Source: Candidatus Nomurabacteria bacterium RIFCSPLOWO2_12_FULL_40_42
GTDB lineage: Bacteria > Patescibacteriota > Minisyncoccia > Phycocordibacterales > UBA9973
Assembly: GCA_001786195.1 (NCBI GenBank)
Contig: MFVS01000008.1
Span: 21,057 to 85,056 of the forward strand
Reading direction: 5' to 3'
DNA: 64,000 bases
The notes under the pieces: model-generated
What the model was told of the DNA's origin: nothing
The model's database searches: none
The model's input: only the letters and a program-made list of their open reading frames with translations
Program-made: the position numbers and the translations under genes
In this document: piece by piece, positions 1,293 through 42,201 of the stretch
How positions within the stretch are numbered: the stretch's first letter is position 1
How the letters are laid out: every line of letters begins with the position of its first letter

Positions 1293-1859
1293 TTATATAC
1301 TAAAAGGTAACGGAACGATTGGCTCGGGCGCTACTGGAGTTGTAGGCTGGACGACTGGGGCTGGTATATCTATATCTGGTGGATTAATGTCGCTTTTTAG
1401 CAAGTCGGGATTTATGGTGTTTAAAAGCGCCCAAGAACCCAGAGCTATCAAGAGTCCCAAAATTGCGCCCGTAATTCTGTGTTTGCCGTCTTCTTTAGTG
1501 TGAGCAAGTTCGCTGGTCATAACTTCCAGACCGCCTACCACGATCATTATCACGGATAAGACGGCGGCCAGTCCGATGAATATTTTTATCATGAGATTCA
1601 GGTACTCACCCAGTTTTGTATTTTGACTATTACCACCGTCACTTGCAGGATTAAAAGAGGATATGCCAGGCAGTGGAGCTAACAAAACATATCTTCCACA
1701 AGGAGCATTCACTGCACTTCCCTCGTTGCTTACAGGCTTTCCGTTGCTATCTATACAAGGTTCTCCTGGCTTAAGATCCGATGCATACGTTTTTAACAAA
1801 GGACTAGAAAATCCAGCAATTATTATTAGTATTAAAATGTATGGTAAATATTTTTTCAT
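1293..1859 (-). CDS. TrbC/VirB2-like T4SS pilin candidate
   Basis: 188 aa. N-terminal signal, then two hydrophobic helices (MIKIFIGLAAVLSVIMIVVGGLEV...ITGAILGLLIALGSWALL) as in conjugative pilins. Lies immediately downstream of VirB4 in the same operon. Confidence 0.5.
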   Translation of the reverse strand: MKKYLPYILILIIIAGFSSPLLKTYASDLKPGEPCIDSNGKPVSNEGSAVNAPCGRYVLLAPLPGISSFNPASDGGNSQNTKLGEYLNLMIKIFIGLAAVLSVIMIVVGGLEVMTSELAHTKEDGKHRITGAILGLLIALGSWALLNTINPDLLKSDINPPDIDIPAPVVQPTTPVAPEPIVPLPFSI

Positions 1860-1999
1860 CCCAGTACTAAAATTTTACTTTTAATTTCTAATTTTGATTT
1901 GTTTTTATTTTTCATAATCATCTTTATCTTAACATTATTTAATCAAAAATTTAGTACGGGATGAGGAAAATCATATTCACTTTGTTCGTTGATTTTCAC

Positions 2000-2974
2000 T
2001 CAAAATTCTATATTTATTTCCTTGCTAGCTGTTTGAAAAATTTTGTCCTTACTTTCTATTTCCAGTCTCAATTTTGATGTTCCGTGCGTGCCAGCTTCTA
2101 CCTGAAGCGGCATCAAATTTTTCCTAAAACTTTGCAAATTTACCAAACCGTCATTAATAAACCACTTCCAGACGAGGGTCGGAGTTTGTATCTCTTTGGG
2201 TGAAATAAAATATGGCACGGCCTCTATGGTTTCCCCAGTTTGTATTTTATACGGATCCGGAATTGCTTGCTCCCAAATTGTTCCGAAATCACTGTCATTT
2301 TTGTAAAATAATATTTTCGGCGCCGTTGTCCCAATGTCTATACTTGCTTGAGATGAATACTTCTGGTCCAAAGTCGAGGCTACGACATTTATATTGTCGG
2401 AATCTTCCAGATAATCATTAGTATAAATGAAAAAGTTTTTACCATAGCCGGAGCCATCCACATTGTTGGTATAATCCTTTTTCCAGTAGTAGGTCATAGA
2501 GCGCCTTAGGCTCTCTGAAGAGCCTAAGGCGCTAATTTCCGGCATCGCCACCACTTTTATCTCGCTGCCTAAGGACGGCATCGCTTTGCCGCGATAAAAA
2601 GGGGGTACATATGAATCATTCGCCTGCCAGAGCAGGACCATGACGGAAGGTTTGATGGTTATTTTTGTCTCTACCACGCCGTCCGGGAGAGAGATCTTGG
2701 CTACAATATTCGTTTCAGCTCCGGCCGCCGGCGCGGTTACCGAAAATGATTTTTTCCCGATTCCTGAGAGAGCGACTTTGCCGTTTTGTGACCAAGATAT
2801 CAGCACGCTGTCTAAATTATAGGCATAGCTATTTAAGGTGATAATGGTTTCTTCATAGGGGTCTGGATTAGGAGGCGCTATATTAACCAAAATATCACTC
2901 GAAGCCGCCGAAACAACACTGACTGTTGCCCCAAAAAAGATGAGCGTTATAAGTGATAAAAATCGAAACTTCAT
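2000..2974 (-). CDS. secreted hypothetical protein
   Basis: 324 aa with a clear signal peptide (MKFRFLSLITLIFFGATVSVVSAASSD). No recognisable catalytic motifs. Confidence 0.5.
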   Translation of the reverse strand: MKFRFLSLITLIFFGATVSVVSAASSDILVNIAPPNPDPYEETIITLNSYAYNLDSVLISWSQNGKVALSGIGKKSFSVTAPAAGAETNIVAKISLPDGVVETKITIKPSVMVLLWQANDSYVPPFYRGKAMPSLGSEIKVVAMPEISALGSSESLRRSMTYYWKKDYTNNVDGSGYGKNFFIYTNDYLEDSDNINVVASTLDQKYSSQASIDIGTTAPKILFYKNDSDFGTIWEQAIPDPYKIQTGETIEAVPYFISPKEIQTPTLVWKWFINDGLVNLQSFRKNLMPLQVEAGTHGTSKLRLEIESKDKIFQTASKEINIEF

Positions 2975-3028
2975 GATTTAATTATAACATATCTACTTTA
3001 CAAACTTTATGACTTTCCATTTTATAAC

Positions 3029-4915
3029 TTAATTATCCAACCCCTGTCTGGTCATTGCCCCCATCACCTCCCCGGCTTCAGCTTCTTCCTTGGCTTTTCT
3101 GTTGGATAGTATTTGCGAAGGGTCGGAGGTAATGATTTGGTCTTCGGTGTACGAAGCGATGATTTTGATGGCCACATGTTTTAAGCCGGCGAAGAAAATT
3201 CCTTCCCCCACTCCGGATTCCAAAAGCAGATATTTTTCTTCATCGGTCAGGTTGAAAGTTTTTTGCAGAATATCTATTGTAGTCGGAGACTGTTTTAATA
3301 ATAATTGGATAGAGGAATTGGTAATGATCGGCACGCCATAAGGAGACTTCATAAAGTCTGCCGCGTCCTGAGTGATGGTGGAAAGGCCAAGATAGTATTT
3401 TCGGCCTCGCTTGGCGATCGAATACAGGAAAGAAGCGGTGTCCTCGGACTTCATCATCCACCAGGCCTCATCTATTACTAGCAGCCTTTTTTTAAGATTC
3501 TTGCGTATAGCGTTCCAAATGTAATGCATGATTATATACATGGCGACCGGTTTCAATTCATCTTCCATGTCGCGGACCGAAAACACAATAAATTTTTTAT
3601 TGATGTCCACATTCGAGGATCGGTTTAAGAAAGTGGCCCAAGAACCTTTGGTGTATTTCGCCAGACGCTGCACGACTGAATCGCTTCCGTCCATTCCCGA
3701 GAGCACCATTTCAAAATCAGAGAGGAGCGGCGGCTCGACATTGGAAAAATTCGATTCCGGGGTGATGTCTTTCATGGCATAAGTTTCAGAAATGGCCCGA
3801 TCCACCATGGAATCTTCCTCGGGAGAGAGCCCTCCCAACATCAGCCGAAAAAGCCCGACCAAGTTTATGGTATTGGATCGAAGCACGTCCTCGGCCGTTT
3901 CATCTTCGCGCGGGATCGGCAGATCAAACGGATTGATATGGTGGTCGGAAGAAAGCGCGATGTTGAAATATCTTCCGCCCACCGCTTCCGACAAGAATTC
4001 GTATTCTTTTTCCGGGTCGATGACGATCACATCGATATCAAACATGAGTGACCTCAAAATTTCCAATTTGGTCGCATAGGATTTTCCCGAACCGGATTTG
4101 GCAAAAGTCACAGAATTATAGTTCTCTAAACTGAATCTGTCGAAGATAACAAGGGATGAATTATGCCGGTTGATGCCATAGAGAATGCCTTTATTGTCGG
4201 TCAAGTCGAAAGAAATAAAGGGGAAAACACTGGATAACGGCTCCGAATTTAATTTTTGGTGGATAGCAAGCAAATCGGTATCGATCGGGATGACACTTTT
4301 GAAACCCGCTTCCTGTTGGAAAAGCGCCGGTTTGATATAGATAAGCTTGGATTCGAGCATGGATTTTATTTCGTTCTCGATCTTGAACAATTCCAAATCG
4401 TTGTCGGCATAAATCGTGATATAAATGCCCACGTCAAACATTTTTTCTTGCGCCTGGATTAAATTGTCGCGCAAGCCCTCGAGGTCGAGGTTCGCGGTAT
4501 CAAGCATCGGGTCGCGCACCATTCCCTTTTTCTCTCGAACATTTATCTGGCTTTGAACTTCGGCTACTTTTTTCTGGAATTGCCGTAGCACCAGCGAAGT
4601 ATCTATCGGATGAATAAATATGGAAATATCAAAAACTTTATCCAGATTGATTATCGGTGAAAACCAATTATCAGTCAGAAATCTTGGATAAGAGATGATA
4701 AAAAATGTGCGGGCGATTTTGTCGCCCAAGTTTATGGATTTCGATTCGATCTTTAGGGCTGACGGCGCTATCACATCCTGGAGTTCCAAGCTGGCGGATT
4801 CGTAAATTTGTTCCGGCAGTACCGCCAAAGTGGAAGCCTGGGCGCCACTTTCTCCATCCGAATTGAGTCCGCTGGCTTTATTTGTTTTTTTAAATAATTT
4901 GTCTAAAATGGACAT
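3029..4915 (-). CDS. virB4: VirB4/TrbE-family T4SS ATPase (ATPase portion)
   Basis: 628 aa. Walker A AKSGSGKSYA, then LLVIDEAWWMM and ITQDAADF motifs typical of VirB4/TraC/CagE ATPases. Confidence 0.8.
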   Translation of the reverse strand: MSILDKLFKKTNKASGLNSDGESGAQASTLAVLPEQIYESASLELQDVIAPSALKIESKSINLGDKIARTFFIISYPRFLTDNWFSPIINLDKVFDISIFIHPIDTSLVLRQFQKKVAEVQSQINVREKKGMVRDPMLDTANLDLEGLRDNLIQAQEKMFDVGIYITIYADNDLELFKIENEIKSMLESKLIYIKPALFQQEAGFKSVIPIDTDLLAIHQKLNSEPLSSVFPFISFDLTDNKGILYGINRHNSSLVIFDRFSLENYNSVTFAKSGSGKSYATKLEILRSLMFDIDVIVIDPEKEYEFLSEAVGGRYFNIALSSDHHINPFDLPIPREDETAEDVLRSNTINLVGLFRLMLGGLSPEEDSMVDRAISETYAMKDITPESNFSNVEPPLLSDFEMVLSGMDGSDSVVQRLAKYTKGSWATFLNRSSNVDINKKFIVFSVRDMEDELKPVAMYIIMHYIWNAIRKNLKKRLLVIDEAWWMMKSEDTASFLYSIAKRGRKYYLGLSTITQDAADFMKSPYGVPIITNSSIQLLLKQSPTTIDILQKTFNLTDEEKYLLLESGVGEGIFFAGLKHVAIKIIASYTEDQIITSDPSQILSNRKAKEEAEAGEVMGAMTRQGLDN

Positions 4916-4920
4916 AGAGT

Positions 4921-5562
4921 TTAGCTTTCCAGCTGAATTTTTCCCTCGACTTCTCCCGGATTAAAAACTTTATAAAATACTTCCACCACTTCTTCGGTGC
5001 CGAGCTGGGCTGATTTTATGCCGCAACGGGAGAGGCCTTGCTCGATGACGCTTACTCGCTCTTCCAATTGCGACCTCTTTTCCTCGAAATCTTCCTGTTT
5101 GGCCAGATTCACTTCTTCCTTGCTTCTTTTTCCGAACAAGCGTTTCAAGATTCCAGAATCTGATTTGAGGACTGTGTGCGTATAAGGGATCACCACAAAA
5201 AAAGTTTTGGTCATTATGCTGACACTCTCGGCAAAATTCCTGATAAAATCAATATATTCCTTGGTTTGTAACTTTAAGAGGGGCTCGCTCTGCACTTTCA
5301 TCCGGTTTTCCAAAAGCAAAAGATAAGGACGGATATCCAATCTGCGGCTCTGCACCGATATCTGGACGGCAAAATCTAAAGTATTCAGGAAACTTTGGAA
5401 TTGCAATATTGTGGCCTTCTGCTCGTCATCGGATTTGAGCGACAGGTTGACCGAATTGGCGAGCACGATGGCCCGCAGGTCGCCATCTTTGAGCACGATG
5501 ATTCCATCACGGACTTCCCTGATTGGCACAAACTCTTGAGTTGCTTTTGCGTTTAAAGGCAT
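4921..5562 (-). CDS. VirB4 N-terminal-domain-like protein (possible split or frameshifted VirB4)
   Basis: 213 aa soluble ORF ending 6 nt before the VirB4 ATPase ORF, in a different frame. 213+628 aa is about the canonical VirB4 length. Sequence (VPIREVRDGIIVLKDGDLRAIV...) resembles VirB4/PrgJ N-termini. Confidence 0.45.
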   Translation of the reverse strand: MPLNAKATQEFVPIREVRDGIIVLKDGDLRAIVLANSVNLSLKSDDEQKATILQFQSFLNTLDFAVQISVQSRRLDIRPYLLLLENRMKVQSEPLLKLQTKEYIDFIRNFAESVSIMTKTFFVVIPYTHTVLKSDSGILKRLFGKRSKEEVNLAKQEDFEEKRSQLEERVSVIEQGLSRCGIKSAQLGTEEVVEVFYKVFNPGEVEGKIQLES

Positions 5563-5595
5563 CTTTTTACTTTATGAACTTTATAACTTTCTACT

Positions 5596-6030
5596 TTATA
5601 ACTCATTTTGGTGTTTGTTTAAGTCCAAGACGTCCAAACTCCAGGCCAAATCCCGCAATTTATTCCCACCTAGCCGAACAGTATCTCGATTCATATTCTG
5701 AGTGACCACTTCTCCCTCTGGCTCCCCACTCTTTATTTTATCTTGATTCTTTTTCTGCCTTTTCCAGATATAAAGCTTGCTCTGTATCAGATAATTAAAT
5801 CCGGCTTCAATCATATTTAGAAAGGGCTTATTGTTGGGTCGATAGCGAGCGAGAGCAATGGCGAGAGCGGCGACGGCGAGGATGGGTATAGCTCCCCAAA
5901 AGAGCCCCAATAGTTTGTAAAGCACAAAACACAAGCCCGCGCCGCCGGCTAGATACACAAACTCTTTGAAAGTGAATGGTCCAAAGATTTTGTCTTCGAT
6001 ATCTAAAAATTGTGGTACTTTAAATTGCAT
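5596..6030 (-). CDS. PrgI/VirB3-like small membrane protein
   Basis: 144 aa. N-terminus MQFKVPQFLDIEDKIFGPFTFKEFVYLAGGAG matches the PrgI-family signature, followed by two TM helices. Positioned directly upstream of VirB4 as VirB3/PrgI usually is. Confidence 0.6.
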   Translation of the reverse strand: MQFKVPQFLDIEDKIFGPFTFKEFVYLAGGAGLCFVLYKLLGLFWGAIPILAVAALAIALARYRPNNKPFLNMIEAGFNYLIQSKLYIWKRQKKNQDKIKSGEPEGEVVTQNMNRDTVRLGGNKLRDLAWSLDVLDLNKHQNEL

Positions 6031-6153
6031 CCCGTACGAAATAGGACGCGTACGCGTACGCTTCGTTGTCCTTTTTATTATTTATAATATATTTAATCAA
6101 TTTCATAATTTTGTTTACTTTATGCGTCCGCGATTTCGTTCGGGATCGCATAC

Positions 6154-6861
6154 CTAAGCTTCCGGCGGCAGACGATACGGATCGGCATTTTTGGGGTAAG
6201 ATTTTGGAGTCTCGGATACGGGTTCCTTTATTTCGCTTGAGGTCCTAGTAATATTTTCGATTGCATGCTCGGTTTTTACGACCGGGGTTTGCACCGTGCT
6301 GGATAATTTTTGGGTCAAGATAGGATGCGCCCTCTCTATCTCTAATTTTCCCGTCTGCATCAGCTGTGCTGAAGGCACTGCGGACAGGTCGTGAATAATT
6401 TCAATACCCGCTGACTTTAACACATGGGTATCTGTATGTATTTCTGTGTTCGCTCTCTCCTTTGAATCACCACCCCCTGCCCCCTCCTCCGAAAGGAGGG
6501 GAGGAGAACTTTTCACGAATATTTTTTTCCTCTCAGTGTTTTTAATTAATTCTTCCCTTATCTTTTTGAAGACCAGGTTATTCATTTCATTCACCAATTC
6601 ATTCGTGGCAGTCTCCGATATTTTTATCCTATTCATTAATTCCTTCGGATAGTTTTCCGCGCTTGTGAGCCCGCAAAGTAAAAGCTCCGTCTCGAGCTCG
6701 AGGTCGCCCAGTTGTTCGAAGGTGTATCCGTACTTACTTCGCAGTGACAAAATAGCCGTTTTCCAATCCACTACGGCAATAGCGTTCACTGTTTCGGTTG
6801 GTAAACTTGCTTTGGCTTCTTGTATTTTTATTTCTAATAAATCTACTGTGTCGTTGACCAT
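6154..6861 (-). CDS. hypothetical protein
   Basis: 235 aa ORF in the T4SS-like operon. Carries GC-rich insert 6481-6504 (EEGAGGGD). Confidence 0.4.
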   Translation of the reverse strand: MVNDTVDLLEIKIQEAKASLPTETVNAIAVVDWKTAILSLRSKYGYTFEQLGDLELETELLLCGLTSAENYPKELMNRIKISETATNELVNEMNNLVFKKIREELIKNTERKKIFVKSSPPLLSEEGAGGGDSKERANTEIHTDTHVLKSAGIEIIHDLSAVPSAQLMQTGKLEIERAHPILTQKLSSTVQTPVVKTEHAIENITRTSSEIKEPVSETPKSYPKNADPYRLPPEA

Positions 6862-6880
6862 ATATTTTTTACTTTATAAC

Positions 6881-7519
6881 TCATTGTATTATATCATTAA
6901 CTGGTTTTATATCGGCAGCCTTTAAAGTTTCCGCATTTTTATTTTGCATTTTAGTTTGGATGTCGGCTAGGGAGAGAGTGGTGGCGGGCGGCACAGAAAA
7001 TACCGGGATGATTGTTTTTTTATTTCCCTCTTGAGGGGTGGCCCTGAGATTTTCTGGGCCGGGGTGGATGTATTGTCCACCTCCTCCTAGCGGGTACTCC
7101 TCAAGAGGAGAATTTGGGGTCATGAATGCCGAATAATCTCCGCCGGAGAGAATGAAATTTACATTTTGCATGGCGGTTGGATTTTTAATTTTCAGATTTT
7201 TCTTGATATTGTCTTCCAAAATTTTTCTAATTGGCTTAAATATCCTCTCTAAAGCCTCATCGGCCATGCTTTTCGCTCCATCCTTGGTAGTGCCGACATG
7301 ATTTTCGATGTTAATAGCGTAAAATTCGAAGTCGGCAGCGCCAATCAAAATTATTAAAGTTTCTAGAATAAAATCGTCAATCTCTTCTTCCGTCAGATTA
7401 TATTTAGCTCCTATTTCTTCGGCGATTTTAACCCAAGGCACAGCCGAAATGGCTTCCTGCCCTTCTTTAGGCAATTGTGCGATTTCCTCTTCAATTGTTT
7501 GTTTTAATTTTTCGGTCAT
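6881..7519 (-). CDS. hypothetical protein
   Basis: 212 aa ORF in the T4SS-like operon. Carries an 82-bp inverted-repeat-flanked GC-rich insert 7027-7109 (EEYPLGGGGQYIHPGPENLRATPQEG). Confidence 0.4.
   Translation of the reverse strand: MTEKLKQTIEEEIAQLPKEGQEAISAVPWVKIAEEIGAKYNLTEEEIDDFILETLIILIGAADFEFYAINIENHVGTTKDGAKSMADEALERIFKPIRKILEDNIKKNLKIKNPTAMQNVNFILSGGDYSAFMTPNSPLEEYPLGGGGQYIHPGPENLRATPQEGNKKTIIPVFSVPPATTLSLADIQTKMQNKNAETLKAADIKPVNDIIQ
7027..7109. repeat. 82-bp GC-rich element with 10-bp perfect terminal inverted repeats, in-frame in a CDS
   Basis: CCTCTTGAGG...CCTCAAGAGG termini. The interior contains GTCCACCTCCTCC. Encodes ...EEYPLGGGGQYIHPGPENLRATPQEG. Confidence 0.55.
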
Positions 7520-7648
7520 CCCGTTAGAGATAGGAAATCTTTAGATTTCCGTTCCCTTAATTATTATTAATATCTTATTTAAGTTTAACATTATTTTTTA
7601 CTTCTATTTTAGTTTTTAACTATTTGATCTCTAACGGGAGTCATTGTA

Positions 7649-8212
7649 TTATTTTGGTCTAAATCCTATCTGGGTTTTTGGTTTTTCTTCTTTTGGTTTT
7701 TCTTTTTTCAGCAGTTGTTTTAATATCTCAAAAACCTCTTTCAGTTGATAATTATATTTTTTCTCCATCTTTTCTATTTTTATTCGGAGCTTCGTATTGG
7801 TTGCGAGCAATTCTCTTAATTTTGTAAAAGTTCTGATTATCTGAATGTTTACAAGTATTGCTCTTTTGCTGTTTAAAACGCTAGATAACATGGCGACACC
7901 TTGTTCGGTAAATGCGTAAGGCAACTTGCGTGTTCCGCCATGACTTGATATCACAAATTGTGACATCAAGTTTGATGTTCCAAATTGGAATATCAAGTTT
8001 TCAAATTCCTCTTTTGTTAGTTGAAACATAAAATCATTTGGAAAACGCTCCATATTTCTTTTTACTGCCTGAATTAATACTCTTGTTTCAACTTGATAAA
8101 GATGTGCTAAATCTTTATCCAGCATTACTTTTTTACCGCGAATAAAAAGTATACCATTTAGGATTCTTTCACTCGGTATTAAACTTTTTGTTTGTTTTAA
8201 TTTTTTGGGCAT
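7649..8212 (-). CDS. ORF6N-domain protein
   Basis: ILFIRGKKVMLDKDLAHLYQVETRVLIQAVKRNMERFPNDFMFQLTKEEFENL...RKLPYAFTEQGVAMLSSVLNSKRA matches the ORF6N (KilA-N-like) domain common in mobile elements. Confidence 0.75.
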   Translation of the reverse strand: MPKKLKQTKSLIPSERILNGILFIRGKKVMLDKDLAHLYQVETRVLIQAVKRNMERFPNDFMFQLTKEEFENLIFQFGTSNLMSQFVISSHGGTRKLPYAFTEQGVAMLSSVLNSKRAILVNIQIIRTFTKLRELLATNTKLRIKIEKMEKKYNYQLKEVFEILKQLLKKEKPKEEKPKTQIGFRPK

Positions 8213-8227
8213 AGAATTTTAAGACTC

Positions 8228-10813
8228 TTAAGGATGTGGAGGGTGTGGAGGATGTTCAGGAGGACGACCACCTCCAATAAATGCTTCTGCTAAAGCTGCA
8301 GCTGCTAAGTCTCTGCCAAATTCTGCTCCTGGCGTATGTACGTCAGTTTTTTCTTCTTTTGGTTTTACTCCCATTCTTATTGCATGAGCAGACTCTCTAC
8401 GCGCGGCTTTGTTCCAAGGCCAGGCAAATGAATTTTCAATATCATTGGCAAATGCTCTTATTCTTTTCTCTCCAACTTCTTTTACCTTATGTTGAAGATC
8501 TGGAATTATTTTATCTTCAAGTTGATCCATTGATCTTCCGCCACCATGTTTGGCAGAAGCAAGTGCTGCCTTTGCTACTGCTGCTGCATTTTCCAATTCC
8601 GAAGCGTTGGAGGCTCCGGCTGTAATAGCTGCCAATGCCGCCGCCTCTGCTCTTTCCGCCTCTGCCTCTAATTCAGAGACCCTATTAACATCTCCTGTTG
8701 CCTTCTTTATCTTATCCTTGAATTCTTTTAACGTTGCCAGTTTATCATTTGCTGCTTTCTTAGCTGCAACTTTAGCAGGATCATTAACATCCATAGCCAT
8801 AGCCGATGCCAAAGTGTTTTGCTTAGCAGGATCGGTATCAGCCATTGCTCTTGCAGCACTTATGGCAGCTTCTCTAGTTGCAACCTTATTAGAATCAGTA
8901 GTATCTCTTGAATTTAAGTCACTTGCATTTTTTCTTGCCGACTCAATCTTTTTATTAAGTTGCTCAAGTTCGTGTGAACTTTCCAAGGAGAGGGCCTGAA
9001 TCGCGTCTTCAGCTGCATTTAATTCCTGTTTCTCTTTTTCGCCTTCCTTGGTTTTAAGTCCTGCAGCTCTCTTCTTTCTCTTTTCGTCTCGTCCCTTCAA
9101 ATCAGCCATGTATCCACCCTCTTCCGTTGAAAGGTATTTTCCTCCTCCTAAGTTGACCCCGGTTATTTTAGATACAGCACCAAAAGCTCCGCCAAACGCA
9201 CCCTTTCTTATATCAAAACTCGAACCCGCAAATCCTCCCTTGCCATCATCTCCACCTGCGATAGTTCTTCCCATACTAGCCAAACGTCTCTGGGCCCAAT
9301 TGCCCTTTGTTTCCCAATCTTGCATCTTTGTACTGTCAAAAACTTTTTTACCTAAATGCCCAGCAGTTCCCTGCAGGACTTTGGCCCCAACCATCATCGT
9401 TCCGCCGGTCGCTGCGCCGATGGCAAGTCCGGTGACCACCTTACCAATTCCTGATGCTATCTCTGCAATTTTTCCTCCTGCCGCTTTAGCAAAGTGGATC
9501 GCTTTGAGAAGCAGAAACATGCTTATTAATGCCGGCAATATTAAAGACAATATATACGGGATAAATCCTTCACCAGTCAGAAGTTTCATTTTCGAATATT
9601 CCTTCAATAACATAAATATCAAATACATAAAAAACATAAAAACTGGAGCCATAAAAGACATTTTAATCAAACGTTTATGCCAGGCGTTCCAGCCCAGATA
9701 TTCCACACCTTGAAGTGCCGGTAAGGCGAAAGACATAAAAGCGAAAGGGGCAAAAATGATCAAAGCCCAAAGTTCGAGCAACCTGCCCAAAAATGCGGCT
9801 CCGGCGACGAAAAAAGCGAAGGCAGCAAAGAACATGATAGATCCAGAGATGATCATTAATCCAAGTGTCAACCCGAAAGGAAGGTTTTCTTTTGATTCTG
9901 TTTTTTCGCCTAATACCGTTATTGTTTTCAGTTTTTTAAGTGTAGGAAAGTCTACCAGCTTAGTAGGGTTAAATGCCTCAACTATCTCGCCAGATATATC
10001 TTTTTCTGTACTGCCTGCAGATTGATCATACACTTTTTGTCTTCCTGGGTTAACTTTCAGTTTATTATAGAAAACCAAAGCCAGAATATTAGAAGAATCT
10101 ATAACCACTTTTGTGAAAAACATTGAAAAGTTTATAAGTAAAGCCATGATTATTACCCAAACTACCGCCTTTTTAGTTTCATGTCCTATCCCTAAAATTG
10201 TTTGAATCGCTACATAAAGTAAAATAAGGATGAAAAAAATATTAGAAAGATCACGCACTACAGCCCAAGCGCTAGATACGAAACCCGAGTCGGTCAAGAC
10301 CGCTAGCTTATTTATCCCAACAGACACCATGGCATTAAAGAAGTTTGCAGACAATATAAGCAGTAAATTTGGGAGTTGGAAGTAAGTGTAGTAAACAATC
10401 CATAAAAAACATCCCTTCACAAGTTGAGATAAATCAAAAGTAGCTCCGCAACCGTTATTAATTTCTCCTCTAAATGTATCAGCTTCTGTTTTTGGTGTTG
10501 TTCCTGTCGCCCCTGCTGCTAGGGTTGCTGGTGTTGCTGGCGCAGGATTGCTAGGGCTGTATGGAGTAAAAATACCTATACCACGACAGTTCTCTGGAGT
10601 GGAGGGGAAAGGTGCTATGTATGTTATTCCACTCGTGCGCTGACAAGTTCCCGTTGCTACCACAGGTGTTGGTGTAGGTGCTGGTTGCGCCTCCACTTGT
10701 TTCCCTCCCGGCCCAAAAAGTCCGACGAGGATAAGCAGTATCAATCCCGTTAGAAGCAATTTACGAATAGTTGGGGATTTTGTTGTATTTCGTGTTAAAT
10801 TATTTTGTGACAT
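8228..10813 (-). CDS. VirB6/TrbL-like polytopic membrane protein with long Ala/Lys-rich coiled-coil tail
   Basis: 861 aa. Signal peptide, Pro/Thr-rich linker, at least 6 predicted TM helices in the middle, then a C-terminal coiled-coil region ending in PPEHPPHPPHP. Heads the T4SS-like operon. Confidence 0.45.
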   Translation of the reverse strand: MSQNNLTRNTTKSPTIRKLLLTGLILLILVGLFGPGGKQVEAQPAPTPTPVVATGTCQRTSGITYIAPFPSTPENCRGIGIFTPYSPSNPAPATPATLAAGATGTTPKTEADTFRGEINNGCGATFDLSQLVKGCFLWIVYYTYFQLPNLLLILSANFFNAMVSVGINKLAVLTDSGFVSSAWAVVRDLSNIFFILILLYVAIQTILGIGHETKKAVVWVIIMALLINFSMFFTKVVIDSSNILALVFYNKLKVNPGRQKVYDQSAGSTEKDISGEIVEAFNPTKLVDFPTLKKLKTITVLGEKTESKENLPFGLTLGLMIISGSIMFFAAFAFFVAGAAFLGRLLELWALIIFAPFAFMSFALPALQGVEYLGWNAWHKRLIKMSFMAPVFMFFMYLIFMLLKEYSKMKLLTGEGFIPYILSLILPALISMFLLLKAIHFAKAAGGKIAEIASGIGKVVTGLAIGAATGGTMMVGAKVLQGTAGHLGKKVFDSTKMQDWETKGNWAQRRLASMGRTIAGGDDGKGGFAGSSFDIRKGAFGGAFGAVSKITGVNLGGGKYLSTEEGGYMADLKGRDEKRKKRAAGLKTKEGEKEKQELNAAEDAIQALSLESSHELEQLNKKIESARKNASDLNSRDTTDSNKVATREAAISAARAMADTDPAKQNTLASAMAMDVNDPAKVAAKKAANDKLATLKEFKDKIKKATGDVNRVSELEAEAERAEAAALAAITAGASNASELENAAAVAKAALASAKHGGGRSMDQLEDKIIPDLQHKVKEVGEKRIRAFANDIENSFAWPWNKAARRESAHAIRMGVKPKEEKTDVHTPGAEFGRDLAAAALAEAFIGGGRPPEHPPHPPHP

Positions 10814-10849
10814 AATTACAATTAATTTTCAATTTTCAATAATCAATTT

Positions 10850-11227
10850 TCATTTTCTAGCGGAACTTGCGATTTTTTGAAAAATAAGCGTTAACTCCTG
10901 GCACTCCTTCCATTGTTTTAGTAAGCCAAATTGCAGATCGGTATCACAAGTAGTCAACATTCTTAGCCAGTGCTTTGTTTCCTGCGTCTCTTTTTTGCAT
11001 ATAAATATTTTATTGATGAAATCTTTTTTAGAACTTGCGCCGTTTGCTTCCATATAGTTGGCTCCTATACTTGTGCCAGATCGAATTAGTTGAGAAATAA
11101 GAGGTCTGGTTATGGTATCTTGCTTTAACTTCTTGCACAATAATATCAAATTTTCACCAAATTTTGCAGTTCTTTCTTCTAAGTCGTAAACGCGAGAATT
11201 TGCAATTTTTGAATTTTCAGTTTTCAT
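10850..11227 (-). CDS. four-helix-bundle protein (TIGR02436 / 23S rRNA-intervening-sequence protein family; Avd homolog)
   Basis: 125 aa with the hallmark SIGANYMEANGASSKKDFINKIFICKKETQETKHWL motif. Confidence 0.8.
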   Translation of the reverse strand: MKTENSKIANSRVYDLEERTAKFGENLILLCKKLKQDTITRPLISQLIRSGTSIGANYMEANGASSKKDFINKIFICKKETQETKHWLRMLTTCDTDLQFGLLKQWKECQELTLIFQKIASSARK

Positions 11228-11316
11228 TGAATTTTTAATGTTTTAAAATTGATTCATTGGGTCTTGGTTGAAAATTGTAAATTAGAAATTGAAAATTTAT
11301 TCTGCATTTTAATTTC

Positions 11317-11631
11317 TTAAACCACCCGTATCCCAGTCTTTCTAATTTCGTAAGCAAGCGGATCAGCATTGTTTTTAAAATCTTCTTCAGTAAAACCGTG
11401 GAACTCAATACGATTATCTACCGCATCACGAAAATCCCAAAGTTTCTTATAATTCCTTCCAAAACGATTTCTAAATTTTGGAGAAATTACAGCGATATCT
11501 ATGTCGCTATCTTTATGATTTGTTCCTCTGGCTCGCGAGCCAAAAAAATATACAGAAGAAAATGGGAATTTCTCCTTTTTTAATTTTTTAGCAAATCGTC
11601 TTACAATTTTTATTGTTTCTGATTTTGACAT
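11317..11631 (-). CDS. nucleotidyltransferase (MNT-type antitoxin)
   Basis: FFGSRARGTNHKDSDIDIAVIS minimal nucleotidyltransferase motif. Overlaps the upstream HEPN gene by 22 nt. Confidence 0.75.
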   Translation of the reverse strand: MSKSETIKIVRRFAKKLKKEKFPFSSVYFFGSRARGTNHKDSDIDIAVISPKFRNRFGRNYKKLWDFRDAVDNRIEFHGFTEEDFKNNADPLAYEIRKTGIRVV

Positions 11632-12011
11632 AACGATTTATATAATTTAGTAATTTTTTCTAATTTATCCTTAGTATATTTTTCCGTACAAATTTTATAC
11701 AACTTCAATTTTTGTTCTGGATATCTAGCACGAATATTAAAAGCGCTAATAGTTTTTAATAGGTCTAATTCATTCTTGTTTAAAGAGATCTTTGTTAATT
11801 TTGCCAGCCTGATTAAATCATGAGTGAAAGGCGCTTGTTCTCCCGTTTCTTGAACGACCAGACCTTTCTGAGTTTTTTCCAAAACAATATGCCCAAAAAA
11901 CAAACTTTCTGGATAGCGCTTAATCTTAAAAAGACCGAGCATGGTGTCATAATCTCTTTTTGCAGTTATTTCCCAATATTTTACCGCTCCTCTTGTTTCT
12001 TTTTCAGTCAT
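11610..12011 (-). CDS. HEPN-domain protein (toxin partner of MNT)
   Basis: 133 aa helical protein encoded immediately upstream of and overlapping the MNT gene, the classic HEPN/MNT pair organisation. Rx4-6H-like C-terminal region. Confidence 0.65.
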   Translation of the reverse strand: MTEKETRGAVKYWEITAKRDYDTMLGLFKIKRYPESLFFGHIVLEKTQKGLVVQETGEQAPFTHDLIRLAKLTKISLNKNELDLLKTISAFNIRARYPEQKLKLYKICTEKYTKDKLEKITKLYKSLCQNQKQ

Positions 12012-12442: not shown

Positions 12443-14659
12443 TCAATTCACCGTAATATTAACCAGGAAGGTCTGCGGATGCGCGATCGATGCATCTTTG
12501 ACTAGTACCGAAGTTATGCCGGCTGTCCTATAATTGGTGATTCGGAGAGTTTTTCTGTTGATTATTTGAGCAGTGGCGATTCTGGAATCAGGCTCCGTTT
12601 GGATGCTATAATTTCCCATTCCGCCGGTGATAGTTAGGTCTCTAAAACAATAATTGTAAGTACTGTAAAGGCCGCAAATTCTGGTTGTATAATTCGATAG
12701 ACTTACGACCAAAGGATCGGTGACGATAATGCTAGTGTTATCGAATTTGGTGGCCAGGGATGAATCTTTGACCATGACTTGGGTCTCCCCTTGCTTCTTG
12801 CCAGTGATTGTAAGAGTGTCGAAATTTGGTCCGAGAATCTGAGCCGTTGCTATTTCGGGGTTGAATGTTGTTACGATTTTATAAGGAGCTGTGCCGCCTG
12901 TGATGGGCAGAGAGTTGACAATTGTACCGGTGATTACTGAAATATTTTGCGGTATGTTTAAGGCTCCGCGTTCTGTTGTCGAGATAATGGCGTTCACTCT
13001 GACAGTTTTGGCAGGTGTTGATGAATCTTTTATTTCAATAAAAGTTGATCCAGGCGCGACACCAGTTACAATTAAGTTTTCGCCAGCTAGGCCCGTCACC
13101 GCAACGGATTGATCTGGGTTTGTTAATATGGAATAAGGTTTTTCCCCGCCAGATATGGTGGTGGTGATTGGGTTGTCGGCGATAGTTACAACGCTTGCCG
13201 GAGTGACTGCTAAAACCCCGATAGCATTTATCGCTATATTAACTATGGCAGTGCATTGTGTCGACAGATTTTGCTCTGGGCAGGAAGTTGACGAGTCTCG
13301 AACTTTGACTTGGGTACTTCCTGGAGCTACGCCAGTAATAGAAAGAGTCGGTCCAGACAATCCAGAGACAGAAATTTCCGCTTTTGCCACTCTGTTGTCT
13401 GGTGGAATTAGAATGCTATAAGGCTGTGTACCGCCGGAAATAATTGTTCGAGTCGTCTCGTCAATTCTAGCTGAAACATTTTGTGGAATGCTTAACGGAG
13501 CAGGTGCACCATAGGTCGATGTTCCACTACTTAGAGTTTGGCCATTGTAGCTCCAGTTGTCTGCAGGAGGCGCGGGGCTGACGGTGCTTGCGAGCGCGCT
13601 CAAACCCGTATCCAAAAGTTTATTGATAAGCGCGTCAAAAATAGCTGCCAGGCTGTTACCTAAAGCTCCGTCGAGCGCAGTGGTAAGGAATGGAACGTTG
13701 AGCGCGTTGAATACTTGATTGGCCGCTACCGAGCCGGGAGTAGTCGAGACTAGACCCCCGGGGCAAGTGTTGTTTTTTGTCCATTCTGCCCTAGCCGCAT
13801 TATTTTCTCTTTCCCATTGCAAAGATCCGCTAGCTCCCGGATATTTTTCCGTATCAAAAGGAAGAGGTTTGTAACTCGGCCTCAAAAATTCATTTGCGCC
13901 ATTGTTGTATTTTGGATTGCTGGGGCAGGTTTGCGGAGAAAGAAATCCCAATCCTTGCTGAAGTTTATCTTTTACCATTTGGGCAGGAGTCATAATCGTC
14001 CCCTCCAGGCGACTTGCCAGGTTTTGCTGAATGAGCATGTTGAACCCTAAATAATTATTTTGCGGATACTGGGTGTTAATGAGGAATCCATTCCAACCCC
14101 CGATATTAAAATCATTTCGGTATTGGACCAAGAGGTCGGGGTCATTGATCACTTTGCTTAAAGTATATTGCGCGTTGATTTCGAGCTGGCTTTTGTAACT
14201 GTCTATTACTTGTAATGCGACTTCTTTGCCGAAGGGAAATCGAAAAGTATCGTAGCCGATCATATCCACTAAATTTTTAACTTGCGACTTGGCTATGTCT
14301 CGAAAGAAGGATTCTGGATTTTCCAGAAATAGCGGCGACCCATGAAAACCGGAGTTTATCCAGTTGATTGTGGCTTGGGTCATCTGTGCTAAGAGTCTCT
14401 TGGCAGCTAATTTAAGCAATTGTTCCAGAAGTTTTTGCATCCAACTTTTATTGTCAATAATAGAACTTGTTGTGGTATTAGTTGTTATTATCTTGAGATA
14501 TATTTGAGCTGGGAAATCATTAACCGGCACGCCGATCGGCGCAGTTTCTTGCGCTTCTGCCTTTTTTACCCCAAAAGACGAAAAAATAGCAGGTGTCAGT
14601 ATAGAAATAATCAAAAGACAAGGGATAAATTTTTGAATTATTTTATTTTTTGTTACCAT
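12443..14659 (-). CDS. secreted protein with four tandem Big_2-like Ig repeats
   Basis: 738 aa. Signal/anchor at the N-terminus. The C-terminal third holds 4 repeats of about 50 aa (SGGxxPYSI...ITGVAPGSTxVxVxDSS). Confidence 0.6.
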   Translation of the reverse strand: MVTKNKIIQKFIPCLLIISILTPAIFSSFGVKKAEAQETAPIGVPVNDFPAQIYLKIITTNTTTSSIIDNKSWMQKLLEQLLKLAAKRLLAQMTQATINWINSGFHGSPLFLENPESFFRDIAKSQVKNLVDMIGYDTFRFPFGKEVALQVIDSYKSQLEINAQYTLSKVINDPDLLVQYRNDFNIGGWNGFLINTQYPQNNYLGFNMLIQQNLASRLEGTIMTPAQMVKDKLQQGLGFLSPQTCPSNPKYNNGANEFLRPSYKPLPFDTEKYPGASGSLQWERENNAARAEWTKNNTCPGGLVSTTPGSVAANQVFNALNVPFLTTALDGALGNSLAAIFDALINKLLDTGLSALASTVSPAPPADNWSYNGQTLSSGTSTYGAPAPLSIPQNVSARIDETTRTIISGGTQPYSILIPPDNRVAKAEISVSGLSGPTLSITGVAPGSTQVKVRDSSTSCPEQNLSTQCTAIVNIAINAIGVLAVTPASVVTIADNPITTTISGGEKPYSILTNPDQSVAVTGLAGENLIVTGVAPGSTFIEIKDSSTPAKTVRVNAIISTTERGALNIPQNISVITGTIVNSLPITGGTAPYKIVTTFNPEIATAQILGPNFDTLTITGKKQGETQVMVKDSSLATKFDNTSIIVTDPLVVSLSNYTTRICGLYSTYNYCFRDLTITGGMGNYSIQTEPDSRIATAQIINRKTLRITNYRTAGITSVLVKDASIAHPQTFLVNITVN

Positions 14660-14670: not shown

Positions 14671-15624
14671 TTAGTTATTTAACTTTTGTTTTATTGCTTC
14701 GGTAAGCATATTACTAGCCAATCCCAGGTCCGTAGAATTTTTCCCGTATTGGTTTATCGCGCCTATTGCTGGTATGGCGTCTGTATCATAGAACTTAATG
14801 TCACTTATATTTTCCACTACCCGCTCTAGAGTGTTTATAACACTTAAATGCGGATCTGAGATAGGCCTCGGTACGTTTATTTTTGTCATGGCGTCTATTA
14901 TTTTATTTGTTTGTTCTATGATCGGGCCAAGTTTTTCTAGTTCGCTCGTATTAACGTTGTTTTCGTCAGCCATAAATTTTTGCAATATGTCAGGCACGGC
15001 ATAGTTCATTGGATATTTTTTGTAAATATTATTTAAAGCATAGTTATAATCTATAAAAGCTTGAGCATTATTTTCATTTGATATTTTTAGATCGGAAAGT
15101 GAGAACACTTTTCTAACAATTGGGTTTTTGATTCTTTCGGCCAAGGTTGTGCCCAAAGTTTCTATAGCGGTTTGATCCACCATTCCATTTTGGTTTCCAG
15201 CGGCGATGGTCGCGAAAAGTTCTCTGGAAAATTTATCAGTTTCTGTCAAATTTTCCGGGTCCTCGTTTTCTCCATTTTCATTTATTTTAGCATTAGCTCT
15301 TTGTTCTGCTTTGAGTTTGCTTATAGCGTTCTGGTCAGATACCCCGGGGGTGGTTTCTTTCTTGGTAGGGTCCAGTCCATACAAGCCTTCTTCCCAGTCT
15401 AGGATGCCGTCGCCATCGGTATCTTTGTTTACCAAATCTTCGAGAGTCGCACTGTTGTAAGCTAGTCCATTTTCTTGGCTTTTGGACGAGGAGTCGAGAG
15501 AATTTTTGAATGTGGTTTTATTTTTTACAAAAAAAAGCGCAACAACAAACGCAATCGCAAAAGCGATCAGAAGTATCTTTTTATTTTTTAACCAAATATT
15601 TTTGATTATGGAATAATTATACAC
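14671..15624 (-). CDS. membrane-anchored hypothetical protein with thrombospondin-3-like Ca-binding motif
   Basis: 317 aa with an N-terminal TM helix. Contains DTDGDGILDWEEGLYGLDP. Confidence 0.4.
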   Translation of the reverse strand: MYNYSIIKNIWLKNKKILLIAFAIAFVVALFFVKNKTTFKNSLDSSSKSQENGLAYNSATLEDLVNKDTDGDGILDWEEGLYGLDPTKKETTPGVSDQNAISKLKAEQRANAKINENGENEDPENLTETDKFSRELFATIAAGNQNGMVDQTAIETLGTTLAERIKNPIVRKVFSLSDLKISNENNAQAFIDYNYALNNIYKKYPMNYAVPDILQKFMADENNVNTSELEKLGPIIEQTNKIIDAMTKINVPRPISDPHLSVINTLERVVENISDIKFYDTDAIPAIGAINQYGKNSTDLGLASNMLTEAIKQKLNN

Positions 15625-15660: not shown

Positions 15661-16611
15661 TTGTGTATAATTCCCTTCATGAGGTCATTTTTCTTATTTA
15701 TTTTTATTATTTTATTATTTTATCCACAGACTCCTATAAAAGTTTTAGCGGCGGGAACTTATTCAGACTGCAATATCACTACTGTATTAAGGATGGGTTC
15801 TAAAGGGGCTGAAGTTCGATGTCTTCAGGGAAAAGTTGGGGTAGCTACCGACGGCAGTTTTGGTCCTTTGACCAATGCTGCAGTTAAGGTTTTCCAAACA
15901 AATAATAGATTAACGCCTGATGGAATAGTCGGCCCTATTTCTAGGCTGATACTTAATAGTTTTTTGGCAAATAATGGTATTTATCCGTCGGTTATCAATC
16001 ATCAAGGGTTGAAACCCATGCCTATGCCGAAAATTACAAATAACTCAACAAATGCTAGTCTTAATCCTGTGGATTTAGATCATTTTATATCTACCGTTGT
16101 AGAAGTAAATAGAAAAAATGGAAAGAGTGAACAAGAATTGGCGGTTATAGCAAATATTCTCCGAAAAACAATTACTGAGAGCAAGATTGATTACAATAAA
16201 GAATTTGAAAAGTTGCTTGTAAATGAAAGTCAACAATTAGGCATTAAATCAAATAACACTCCTCCACACCCTAGCATTTTTGATCGCATGATTAAAAAAC
16301 CCCTTTCCTTTTTAGATATTACTTCTTCTGTAGCTCAAGCTGCAACTGGGGCAGGTATAGGGTTCGGTGGCAAATTACTAGCCGCTACTCCTTGTGCCGG
16401 AAGTTGGATGTTGGAAATAACTCCTCTGCCTCCGACGAACGTAGTGCTTTTGAGTTATATTCCGGGCACTCAGGGTTTTGCAAGCTACAATATACCCTTT
16501 ACCACTAATCTACTTGGATTATATGTACCAGGTGGTAACTGTTCTTATGGTCCTGTTAATATAACAACCCAAGGCACTATTCTCCCAATGGTCGGTTCGT
16601 CTCCTCTCTAG
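15661..16611 (+). CDS. peptidoglycan-binding-domain protein
   Basis: Signal peptide. PG_binding_1-like segment GSKGAEVRCLQGKVGVATDGSFGPLTNAAVKVFQTNNRLTPDGIVGP. Confidence 0.6.
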   Translation: MCIIPFMRSFFLFIFIILLFYPQTPIKVLAAGTYSDCNITTVLRMGSKGAEVRCLQGKVGVATDGSFGPLTNAAVKVFQTNNRLTPDGIVGPISRLILNSFLANNGIYPSVINHQGLKPMPMPKITNNSTNASLNPVDLDHFISTVVEVNRKNGKSEQELAVIANILRKTITESKIDYNKEFEKLLVNESQQLGIKSNNTPPHPSIFDRMIKKPLSFLDITSSVAQAATGAGIGFGGKLLAATPCAGSWMLEITPLPPTNVVLLSYIPGTQGFASYNIPFTTNLLGLYVPGGNCSYGPVNITTQGTILPMVGSSPL

Positions 16612-17419
16612 AAGCCAAGACAATCCAGTCTTCCAGTGTTAAATCCTCCGCTCTTTTGTCTTGAAGTTGCTTTCTTTCGAGTTTTTCTGCCGAAATAACA
16701 TTTTTTAAGTTGCCAGAGAGCTTTTTTCGCTTATGGGCGAAGCCGGTTTTTACTATTTGCCAAAATTTAGTCTCGTCTATTTTATTATCTTCGAAAACTT
16801 TGCGGGAAATATTTTTTATGGCTATTATGGCCGAATTTACCTTGGGTACTGGCGAGAAATATCTTTTGTCCACCTTGGCGATCATTTTCGGCTCCCCGTA
16901 TGCTTTGACAGAAATGGAGAGGATGCTTTCTTTGCCGTTTTTGGCCAAAATTCTTGTCGCGACTTCGCGCTGAACCATGAGCACCATACCCTTTGGTTGG
17001 TTTTTTCCCGTTAAGAATTTTTTAAGTATCGCGCCGGTTATGTTGTAAGGAATATTCGCAATTACTTTGTAATTGCGTAATTCGTAATTCGTAATTTCAA
17101 ATTCCAATATGTCACCATGAACTAAATTTAGTTGTCCCGATGAAATTTCTTTTTCAAATTTTATTTTTAAAAATTCATAAAGTTCCCTGTCTTTCTCTAT
17201 CGCTAGAACCTCGCACCTAGTCTCTAGCAACTTATTTGTGAGCGCTCCCCTGCCCGGACCTATCTCTAAAATTATCTCGCCAGGTTTTATCTCCTCCGCT
17301 TCAATAATTTGCCAGAGAGCCTCTTCCGATTTTAAAAAATTTTGCCCTAAAGCCTTTTTGGCTCGGGCGAAAACATATTTGTTTTGTAGCCCCAAATGTT
17401 TTTTAGCTCTGTGTAACAT
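16577..17419 (-). CDS. rsmA: 16S rRNA (adenine1518/1519-N6)-dimethyltransferase
   Basis: LGQNFLKSEEALWQIIEAEEIKPGEIILEIGPGRGALT and ANIPYNIT motifs of KsgA/RsmA. Confidence 0.9.
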   Translation of the reverse strand: MLHRAKKHLGLQNKYVFARAKKALGQNFLKSEEALWQIIEAEEIKPGEIILEIGPGRGALTNKLLETRCEVLAIEKDRELYEFLKIKFEKEISSGQLNLVHGDILEFEITNYELRNYKVIANIPYNITGAILKKFLTGKNQPKGMVLMVQREVATRILAKNGKESILSISVKAYGEPKMIAKVDKRYFSPVPKVNSAIIAIKNISRKVFEDNKIDETKFWQIVKTGFAHKRKKLSGNLKNVISAEKLERKQLQDKRAEDLTLEDWIVLASREETNRPLGE

Positions 17420-26590: not shown

Positions 26591-26638
26591 CTAAGACATA
26601 AACTTTCAATTTTTTTAGAAATATTGTATTATTGTAAG

Positions 26639-34284: not shown

Positions 34285-34291
34285 AAATAAT

Positions 34292-35509: not shown

Positions 35510-35558
35510 ATTACTTATTCCCGTCTTGTTTTTGAAGATATTTAGAATAAGTGATACA

Positions 35559-36610: not shown

Positions 36611-36653
36611 AATCGCTAAAGAATACTGAAATTAATGTGAGTGTATAAAATTA

Positions 36654-41147: not shown

Positions 41148-41180
41148 TTTAAGCTTTTATTTATAAGGGTTTTTCTGGTA

Positions 41181-42188: not shown

Positions 42189-42201
42189 TTAAGTTTCTCC
42201 T

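Follow-up and report, generated by a model that had tools for sequence, protein, structure and literature searches.

The question raised by the locus described here is what a type IV secretion system (T4SS) with no recognizable relaxase or coupling protein is doing in Candidatus Nomurabacteria bacterium RIFCSPLOWO2_12_FULL_40_42, and whether it should be regarded as part of a conjugative element. The material analyzed was a 64-kb (64,000-nucleotide) stretch of contig MFVS01000008.1, referred to below as the window, and all positions are those of the window unless a related locus is named. The interval first flagged was 1293-10813 on the minus strand, where nine closely packed open reading frames (ORFs) are found. 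The gene list of the original prediction (a VirB6-like protein, an ORF6N protein, two unknowns, PrgI, VirB4, a secreted protein and a pilin) was recovered in full on that strand and at the positions given below, and the conserved module proved to be broader, extending from 15624 to past the left end of the window. We consider it likely that this module is a vertically inherited, chromosome-fixed T4SS of the "Patescibacteria clade", derived from the MPF_FATA class and belonging to a Nomurabacteria-like member of the Paceibacteria, and that it mediates exchange with a host rather than conjugation. The cluster is an ordinary representative of a system already described in papers from 2023 to 2025 and adds no new principle; it serves as a compact Paceibacteria example, with ~11 conserved genes, one pilin, a two-gene VirB4 and a clear conservation gradient.

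The ancestry of the system was deduced from its motor. The 628-aa VirB4 ATPase (3029-4915, minus) is of the MPF_FATA (CD1110/PrgJ) type, scoring 363.7 bits against the NCBIfam model conju_CD1110 ("VirB4-like conjugal transfer ATPase, CD1110 family"; cut-off 325) and matching P-loop_TraG in Pfam at 2.6e-25, with an intact Walker A motif (AKSGSGKS). When its family profile was compared to reference proteins, PrgJ (4.5e-47) and TrsE (1.6e-36) were matched, and the closest VirB4 loci (n = 68) were all from Nomurabacteria or Paceibacterota at 76-92% identity. The match spans positions 183-733 of the 752 in the CD1110 model, the first ~180 being missing. The 213-aa ORF at 4921-5562 (minus), which matched NCBIfam TrsD at 2.4e-7 and has a precomputed PF26593 (TraC-like) match, was found to align to positions 2-117 of the same model and to the N-terminal part of three VirB4 models. 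One VirB4 is thus covered by the two genes side by side, with its N-terminal domain encoded by the TrsD-like gene. The TrsD-like stop codon lies 5 nt ahead of the VirB4 ATG, and a frameshift or pseudogene was considered as the origin of the split. This was ruled out, as TrsD and VirB4 were separate ORFs in all 62 related loci with complete ORFs (62/62), with spacers and relative frames that vary, indicating conserved gene fission. The "split" VirB4 first reported is thus correct as to its two ORFs and incorrect if taken to mean a broken gene; judged from these comparisons, it is an ancient, conserved two-gene arrangement. Among the accessory components of patescibacterial T4SSs, TrsD is also reported as the most abundant (PMC12102498).

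Directly upstream of these genes, the small membrane protein of 144 aa (5596-6030, minus) was assigned to the PrgI/VirB3-like family from its PF12666 match (32.5 bits, E 1.3e-7), which exceeds the gathering score of 27. The family profile matched TrsC of pGO1 at 9e-4, the protein has two neighboring hydrophobic helices, and the gene is kept in 70 loci.

The 188-aa product of 1293-1859 (minus), two genes from virB4, was assigned as the VirB2-like pilin. Its signal peptide is followed by a hydrophobic hairpin of two helices (~83-147), and the C-terminal tail is Pro-rich; residues 69-149 were matched by T4SS_pilin (2.6e-5), TrbC (2.1e-4) and the Mbov_0395 pilin-like model (1.6e-6). Taken alone, the window protein falls just short of the curated cut-offs; the pilin call holds at the level of the family, where 34 of 36 orthologues matched PF18895, the best at 2.8e-9.

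The VirB6 call failed plain hidden Markov model (HMM) searches and gained support from fold and from profile-profile comparison. No family in Pfam or NCBIfam, TrbL/VirB6 included, was matched by the 861-aa polytopic membrane protein (8228-10813, minus) or by 45 aligned relatives; the only hits of these searches and of the family profile against PDB sequences were noise of the low-complexity or coiled-coil type, confined to the C-terminal domain. The AlphaFold2 model (mean predicted local distance difference test score [pLDDT] 74) begins with a leader and a Cys-containing ectodomain, passes through ~7 hydrophobic helices (149-439) and ends in a hydrophilic, helical C-terminal domain of 420 aa, which was modeled confidently and, from the charges of the loops, is probably cytoplasmic. 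A Foldseek search with this model returned TrwI chains as the sole matches of sensible geometry (target-normalized TM-score [TMt] 0.47-0.48), at E-values that were not significant. TrwI, the VirB6 protein of R388 (PDB 7o3v, 8rt9 and 8rtd), shares 11% sequence identity with the VirB6-like protein and, unlike it, is part of a diderm system and lacks a long C-terminal domain. When the family was aligned with hhalign to single TrsL and PrgH sequences the results were not significant, while an alignment of pGO1 TrsL, which is of the TrbL family, gave an E value of 7.8e-4 and a probability of 25%, with 225 columns aligned collinearly. In addition, the gene sits at the position of SEML1_0013 of Southlakia epibionticum ML1, a TrbL/VirB6-like protein of 1088 aa whose C-terminal domain is helical. 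On fold, profile-profile comparison and position, homology is likely and the 861-aa protein can be described as an "extended VirB6". Divergence beyond the reach of HMMs was also a problem in the published survey, where VirB6 was found in only 480 cases (PMC12102498). The VirB6-like family profile was also seen to match the pilin at E 1.5e-5 (0.011 in the reverse comparison), and the consensus N-terminal leaders of the two resemble each other (KKxxPYxLILxILVGLFGP...A). This may represent a shared leader or sorting signal, or it may be mere hydrophobic similarity.

Whether these genes form a mobile or a fixed unit was addressed by synteny. A scan of one genome per species yielded 80 loci, all from metagenome-assembled genomes of Nomurabacteria, Paceibacterota or Minisyncoccia. 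Within contig ends, the order in all 80 is KsgA-g317-g738-VirB6-like-u212-u235-PrgI-TrsD-VirB4-s324-pilin-s457, where the lettered names stand for the remaining conserved proteins described below, and beyond s457 lie jag and yidC, in the opposite orientation, and then dnaA. About 11 genes are syntenically conserved. The comparison with related genomes called for at the outset therefore gave the same order and the same chromosomal site in 80 species-level genomes, from which it was concluded that the locus is not an integrative and conjugative element (ICE). The earlier description as a minimal T4SS-like system and not a classical conjugative element is upheld in its second part by this fixed site and by the missing relaxase and VirD4, while "minimal" understates a module of ~11 conserved genes.

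The proteins of the module differ greatly in constraint. Median identity to the window proteins was 89% for VirB4 (across 68 species-level genomes), 82% for TrsD and 66% for PrgI, compared to 78% for YidC and 62% for KsgA. It was 60% for s457, 59% for s324, 51% for the pilin, 50% for u212, 49% for g317, 48% for g738, 39% for u235 and 38% for the VirB6-like protein. The value for VirB4 against those for KsgA and YidC indicates strong purifying selection. By this sequence measure, the motor is more constrained than core housekeeping genes and the predicted surface-exposed parts diverge fast. For a secretion ATPase, the constraint on VirB4 is unusually strong.

The absence of conjugation functions from the window, as originally predicted, was confirmed. 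Pfam was run on 46 ORFs (selected larger ORFs, which took in most of those of at least 213 aa, plus the cluster ORFs and ten smaller ones), among which no relaxase, VirD4/T4CP (type IV coupling protein) or VirB11 family was matched. With phmmer, the coupling proteins TrsK and PcfC and the relaxases PcfG and Nes found nothing in all six-frame ORFs of the window. The Gram-positive references likewise found no T4CP or relaxase in 81 related loci (1.4 Mb), where PrgJ, used as a control, recovered 69 VirB4 genes. A relaxase or VirD4 just outside the window had been named as the finding that would point to an ordinary conjugative element. The contig containing the window (ENA ERZ27254763, k141_1078493) reaches 8.7 kb past the left edge, and this flank was found to hold only s457, jag, yidC, yidD, rnpA, dnaA, dnaN, a penicillin-binding protein and a tRNA synthetase gene, with jag, yidC, yidD, rnpA, dnaA and dnaN located 0.1-5.5 kb past the edge. 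The absence of VirB11 is uninformative because T4SSs of the Gram-positive type never have it (PMC12857230).

Two candidates were encountered and rejected in these searches. The T2SSE ATPase at 32509-34284 was ruled out as a VirB11, since it has an MshEN domain and lies beside PilC, which identifies it as a type IV pilus motor. A weak VirB3 match (E 0.0028; 18.4 bits, below the cut-off of 23.9) was seen on a 219-aa ORF (26525-27184, plus) that overlaps the end of an oppositely oriented gene of 569 aa, and it is probably due to chance. A motif scan for P-loop proteins in the window gave PilB, Tmk, Pif1, UvrD and VirB4, with one ORF of metallo-beta-lactamase fold flagged by chance.

These data bear directly on the possibility that the cluster is a remnant or part of an ICE whose relaxase and coupling protein lie elsewhere. 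Such an origin would account for the descent of the components from Gram-positive conjugation genes and for the small mobile genes found inside the cluster. It is nevertheless judged extremely improbable: the position between ksgA and jag-yidC-dnaA and the gene order are identical in the 80 genomes, neither the window nor the left flank holds a relaxase or T4CP, VirB4 conservation is very high, and the mobile genes occur in only 2 or 3 of the 80 loci. The GC content is also ordinary, at 0.39-0.44 in the cluster as in the rest of the window, with no compositional anomaly. Conjugation as the role of the system is very unlikely.

The mobile genes in question are the ORF6N, Avd-like and HEPN/MNT genes. 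The ORF6N-domain protein (7649-8212, minus; PF10543, 1.6e-34) is present in the operon as first reported and is a sporadic passenger rather than a conserved module member, since it was found in 3 of the 80 loci (L031, L054 and L068) and there at another position, upstream of the VirB6-like gene. Its identity in those loci was 69-83%, versus 35-42% for the flanking VirB6-like gene. Next to the cluster, the predicted Avd-like protein and the HEPN member of the predicted HEPN/MNT pair were confirmed. The 23S_rRNA_IVP/Avd-like four-helix protein (10850-11227, minus; PF05635, 1.5e-14) recurs in three loci (L007, L040 and L076), between u235 and PrgI. The MNT nucleotidyltransferase (11317-11631, minus; precomputed Pfam match) and the HEPN protein (11610-12011, minus; Pfam) recur in two (L052 and L080), at the same site as in the window and with 63-89% identity. 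Judged by this distribution, the ORF6N, Avd-like and HEPN/MNT genes are small mobile passengers in the intergenic gaps of the operon and not parts of the machine. Across the inserts, identity between genomes was 63-89%, while the VirB6-like genes flanking them share only 31-54%, and the intergenic gaps of the T4SS block appear as a recurrent landing site for small mobile genes.

The closest description in the literature is that of the Patescibacteria-clade VirB4 lineage, which is nested in MPF_FATA and was found in 2,417 of 3,035 genomes (Quinonero-Coronel et al. 2025, PMC12102498), so that the class is present in ~80% of Patescibacteria genomes. Near patescibacterial virB4 genes the same study reported TrsD, PrgI, VirB6 and VirB2-like pilins, with almost no relaxases and with T4CP homologues rarely close, and the T4SS of Paceibacteria was reported to adjoin dnaA, dnaN, rnpA and ksgA. 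The window locus agrees in its MPF_FATA VirB4 with adjacent TrsD, in PrgI/VirB3, in a pilin near virB4, in having neither a relaxase nor a nearby T4CP, and in its chromosomal site near dnaA, dnaN, rnpA and ksgA. Nothing essential differs; particular to this species are the single "bare" pilin and the ORF6N, HEPN/MNT and Avd-like inserts.

A functional counterpart is provided by Southlakia epibionticum ML1, in which the cluster SEML1_0006-0019 was found to be essential for epibiotic growth by transposon sequencing (Tn-seq), nearly all genes of SEML1_0005-0019 being essential (Wang et al. 2023, PMC10633639). That T4SS is Gram-positive-like in composition and has pilins, with no coupling protein or relaxase (PMC10633639). 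The two clusters share an extended VirB6 (a likely one in the window; 1088 aa in Southlakia, with a helical C-terminal domain) followed further on by PrgI, a TrsD-like protein, VirB4 and envelope proteins, an Ig (immunoglobulin)-like exported protein, PF18895 pilins, the absence of a recognizable relaxase or T4CP from the cluster, and a comparable location, which in Southlakia is near the start of the genome numbering (SEML1_0005 onward, ~4.5 kb in). In Southlakia, six pilin genes form an array on the opposite strand, and a separate multi-lysozyme protein, two ~1000-aa proteins and one that is NTF2-like are found in addition, while one pilin, the u212/u235 pair, s324, s457, g738 and g317 are particular to the window. 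Essentiality is a result for Southlakia only. On the strength of that Tn-seq result, this class stands alone among known T4SSs in being required for the growth of its owner.

Comparison with conjugative plasmids supports the Gram-positive derivation. Staphylococcal pGO1/pSK41 Trs is the MPF_FATA subclass that has TrsD, and its trsC(VirB3-like)-trsD-trsE(VirB4) genes are collinear with PrgI-TrsD-VirB4 in the window. Unlike the window locus, pGO1 is a plasmid; it encodes TrsK (T4CP), Nes (relaxase), TopB, SSB and TrsG (a CHAP hydrolase), all absent here, and its TrsL (305 aa) lacks the 420-aa C-terminal domain of the VirB6-like protein. Prg/Pcf of enterococcal pCF10 provides the best VirB4 match (PrgJ, of the CD1110 family) and a protein of the PrgI family; unlike TrsD plus VirB4 in the window, PrgJ contains the N-terminal domain within the same polypeptide. 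Specific to pCF10 are PcfC (T4CP), PcfG (relaxase), the hydrolase PrgK and the adhesins PrgB and PrgC, and it has no VirB2-like pilin. Family HMMs of TrsD, the pilin, s324, s457, u212/u235, g317 and g738 found no partner among the proteins of pGO1 and pCF10. Compared to the "minimized" streptococcal T4SS (VirB1, VirB4, VirB6 and VirD4), the window cluster lacks VirD4 and a VirB1-type hydrolase.

Although no hydrolase domain was found by Pfam or NCBIfam in the window's own cluster, such domains were observed on the pilin in sister species. In ~15 of the 36 pilin orthologues, a peptidoglycan-active domain follows the second helix of the two-helix core. The domains were VanY in six (including L011 18178-19170, L021 17687-19087 and L032 17740-18873), NlpC/P60 in four (L016 7581-8570, L025 17149-18141, L030 and L033), SLT_2 in two and SLT_3 in one (L026 and L036 being among the SLT fusions), YkuD in one (L024) and Amidase_5 in one. 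Further orthologues bear carbohydrate-binding modules or Ig-like domains, while the window pilin has only its Pro-rich tail. By the positive-inside rule, the predicted location of the pilin C terminus is extracytoplasmic, and the fusions would accordingly place the hydrolases at the outer side of the organelle or membrane. A search of one T4SS survey (PMC12102498) for relevant terms gave no mention of pilin-hydrolase fusions, and the observation may be new. The fusions in sister species suggest that the Paceibacteria version of the system has an inbuilt means of breaching a wall, be it that of the cell itself or that of the host.

The remaining conserved proteins comprise four with envelope features and one paralogous pair. 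The secreted protein s324 (2000-2974, minus), which has a signal peptide and was found in 60 related loci, gave an AlphaFold2 model (pLDDT 63) in which domains 28-107 and 219-324 were confident and 111-218 was of low confidence. The confident domains are two Ig/FnIII (fibronectin type III)-like beta-sandwiches, and the modeled middle segment may be a third. Foldseek returned generic tandem Ig/FnIII proteins only, and the 817 homologues were all hypothetical proteins of Patescibacteria. Going by the model, s324 is probably an envelope-spanning or adhesive accessory subunit. The last gene of the module, s457 (1-1281, minus), is cut by the window edge, and ~427 N-terminal codons of the 457-aa protein are within the window; the whole gene lies at 10579-11952 of locus L001. 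The protein has a single N-terminal hydrophobic segment, consistent with a membrane-anchored, extracytoplasmic location, and follows the pilin gene in 56 related loci. It had no Pfam or PDB match, including by profile against PDB, and weak PD40 matches were seen in 2 of 23 orthologues.

At the other end of the block, g738 (12443-14659, minus) is a secreted or anchored surface protein with an N-terminal hydrophobic leader and approximately four repeated beta-domains, one of which matched PF13629 at 2.6e-12. It occupies the same position, upstream of the VirB6-like gene, in 71 loci, and it is probably an adhesin or accessory protein, assigned to the module by its synteny only. The gene g317 (14671-15624, minus) is separated from g738 by an 11-nt gap and follows KsgA (16577-17419) as the opening gene of the conserved block, at the same position in 67 loci. 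Its product has an N-terminal anchor and a DxDxDG calcium-binding-like motif, gave no family match in Pfam or NCBIfam, and is likewise a putative module member by gene order. The two proteins u235 (6154-6861, minus; 74 loci) and u212 (6881-7519, minus; 52 loci) share 30% identity over 99 aa (E 7e-6) and are therefore paralogues. u235 is soluble, with no hydrophobic or transmembrane segment, and u212 has one weak hydrophobic segment. The pair gave no match in Pfam, NCBIfam or, searched by profile, PDB, and no relatives were detected outside the group. A u212-like domain (53-55% identity) was found directly after ksgA in L066 (~5977) and L071 (~4942), where it had caused the u212 profile to cross-match KsgA ORFs; a copy of the u212 domain thus seems to exist outside the operon.

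From this inventory, the apparatus could theoretically be an organelle for adhesion only, that is, a VirB2-like fiber built by VirB4 and sometimes decorated with hydrolases, which attaches the cell to its host or remodels the wall and translocates nothing. The pilin-hydrolase fusions, the lack of a T4CP to recruit substrates and the fast divergence of s324, g738 (Ig-like or repeat-rich) and the pilin, at 48-59% median identity versus 89% for the motor, are all consistent with this. We nevertheless regard it as unlikely, since an extended VirB6 with a large domain deduced to be cytoplasmic is conserved together with u212 and u235, none of them obviously needed for a simple fiber, and type IV pili already provide adhesion in cultivated relatives (PMC10633639).

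Uptake of DNA was weighed as a further role. Helicobacter pylori has in ComB a chromosomally encoded T4SS that functions with neither a coupling protein nor a relaxase, and the cluster, which likewise has neither, could in the same way or like archaeal Ced be a competence system that takes up environmental or host DNA and hands it to ComEC. The presence in the window of ComEC (46354-47859) and RecJ, and the location of ABY1-class T4SS loci with comF/recG/radA (PMC12102498), would fit. Against this, the window has a type IV pilus set, and such pili together with ComEC account for natural transformation in Saccharibacteria (PMC12857230). Moreover, deletion of comEC there abolishes competence and leaves the cells viable while the T4SS is essential (PMC12857230). 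The viable comEC deletion and the essential T4SS of Southlakia (PMC12857230) speak against an essential role in DNA uptake through ComEC. ComB also has the diderm core VirB7-VirB10, which the window locus, of Gram-positive ancestry, does not have; VirB8, VirB9 and VirB10 families gave no match on any cluster protein in Pfam or NCBIfam. DNA uptake is therefore given a low probability, and a T4SS for contact-dependent exchange with the host remains the preferred reading.

We hypothesize that in such a system VirB4 and TrsD would assemble at the membrane on a platform of PrgI/VirB3 and the VirB6-like protein and would spend ATP on extracting the VirB2-like pilin from the membrane and polymerizing it; the product would be a short pilus or a conduit across the wall. 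The proteins s324, s457, g738 and g317 would form the wall-spanning and host-binding parts, and the apparatus would serve protein export or the uptake of host molecules. The fusions of the pilin to peptidoglycan hydrolases in sister species would mean that the organelle also breaches the cell wall, and they point to wall breaching as part of the mechanism. These steps were derived from established T4SS biology and the cited papers, the present results being the parts list and its conservation. A more radical possibility, which we regard as speculative and rather doubtful, is that the VirB2-like subunit is a carrier displaying wall-degrading enzymes on the outer side of the organelle, and that the Paceibacteria T4SS is a device, driven by VirB4, which breaches the wall of the host and acts as a "feeding tube" instead of a secretion channel. 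If this were true, species with a bare pilin, such as the present one, would obtain the enzyme in trans, or the pilus would penetrate mechanically.

Several observations weigh against a host-exchange T4SS. To our knowledge a pilus has never been observed for these systems. The window pilin scored just under the curated cut-offs (24.6 versus 26.6 bits for T4SS_pilin and 21.9 versus 27.9 for TrbC), and no VirB8-like or VirB1-like component was recognized in the cluster. Synteny alone ties g317, g738, s324, s457, u212 and u235 to the machine. Finally, VirD4-like matches lie far from virB4 in most genomes (PMC12102498), making a distant coupling protein possible.

The remaining 53 kb to the right of the cluster contain housekeeping, type IV pilus, competence and diversity-generating retroelement (DGR) genes. 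Housekeeping genes identified in the window by Pfam were KsgA, UvrD, the CCA-adding enzyme, triosephosphate isomerase, phosphoglycerate kinase, RecJ, serine hydroxymethyltransferase, arginyl-tRNA synthetase and Tmk, and the other genes identified were PilB, PilC, a prepilin-like protein, ComEC, the DGR reverse transcriptase, an intein-bearing tyrosine recombinase and Pif1. The type IV pilus and competence genes (PilB, PilC, a prepilin-like ComGE/N_methyl protein and ComEC) lie at 32509-37112 and 46354-47859, and a gene for a Tsp45I-family restriction enzyme (35526-36350) is located between the pilC and pilin genes. An intein that contains a LAGLIDADG endonuclease domain splits the tyrosine recombinase (29147-31345, 732 aa, phage-integrase family), which is the only one in the window and lies ~18 kb from the cluster.

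With respect to replication, the cumulative GC skew has its minimum near 20 kb, while dnaA lies ~2.8-4.2 kb to the left of position 1, and DnaA boxes were not clearly clustered at either the skew minimum or rnpA/dnaA. Large ORFs are mostly on the minus strand up to ~19.5 kb and at ~25-31 kb and on the plus strand from ~32 kb. The T4SS genes would be co-oriented with replication if the origin is near 20-30 kb, as the skew indicates, and head-on to it if oriC is at rnpA/dnaA.

The DGR occupies 41161-43588, with a variable region (VR) at 41577-41695, a template repeat (TR) at 42068-42186 and the reverse transcriptase at 42578-43588 (RVT_1, 1.8e-26). The Avd-like gene next to the T4SS cluster is 31 kb away and is not the accessory gene of this DGR. 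VR and TR share 92% identity, with adenines of the TR accounting for 9 of the 10 differences between them.

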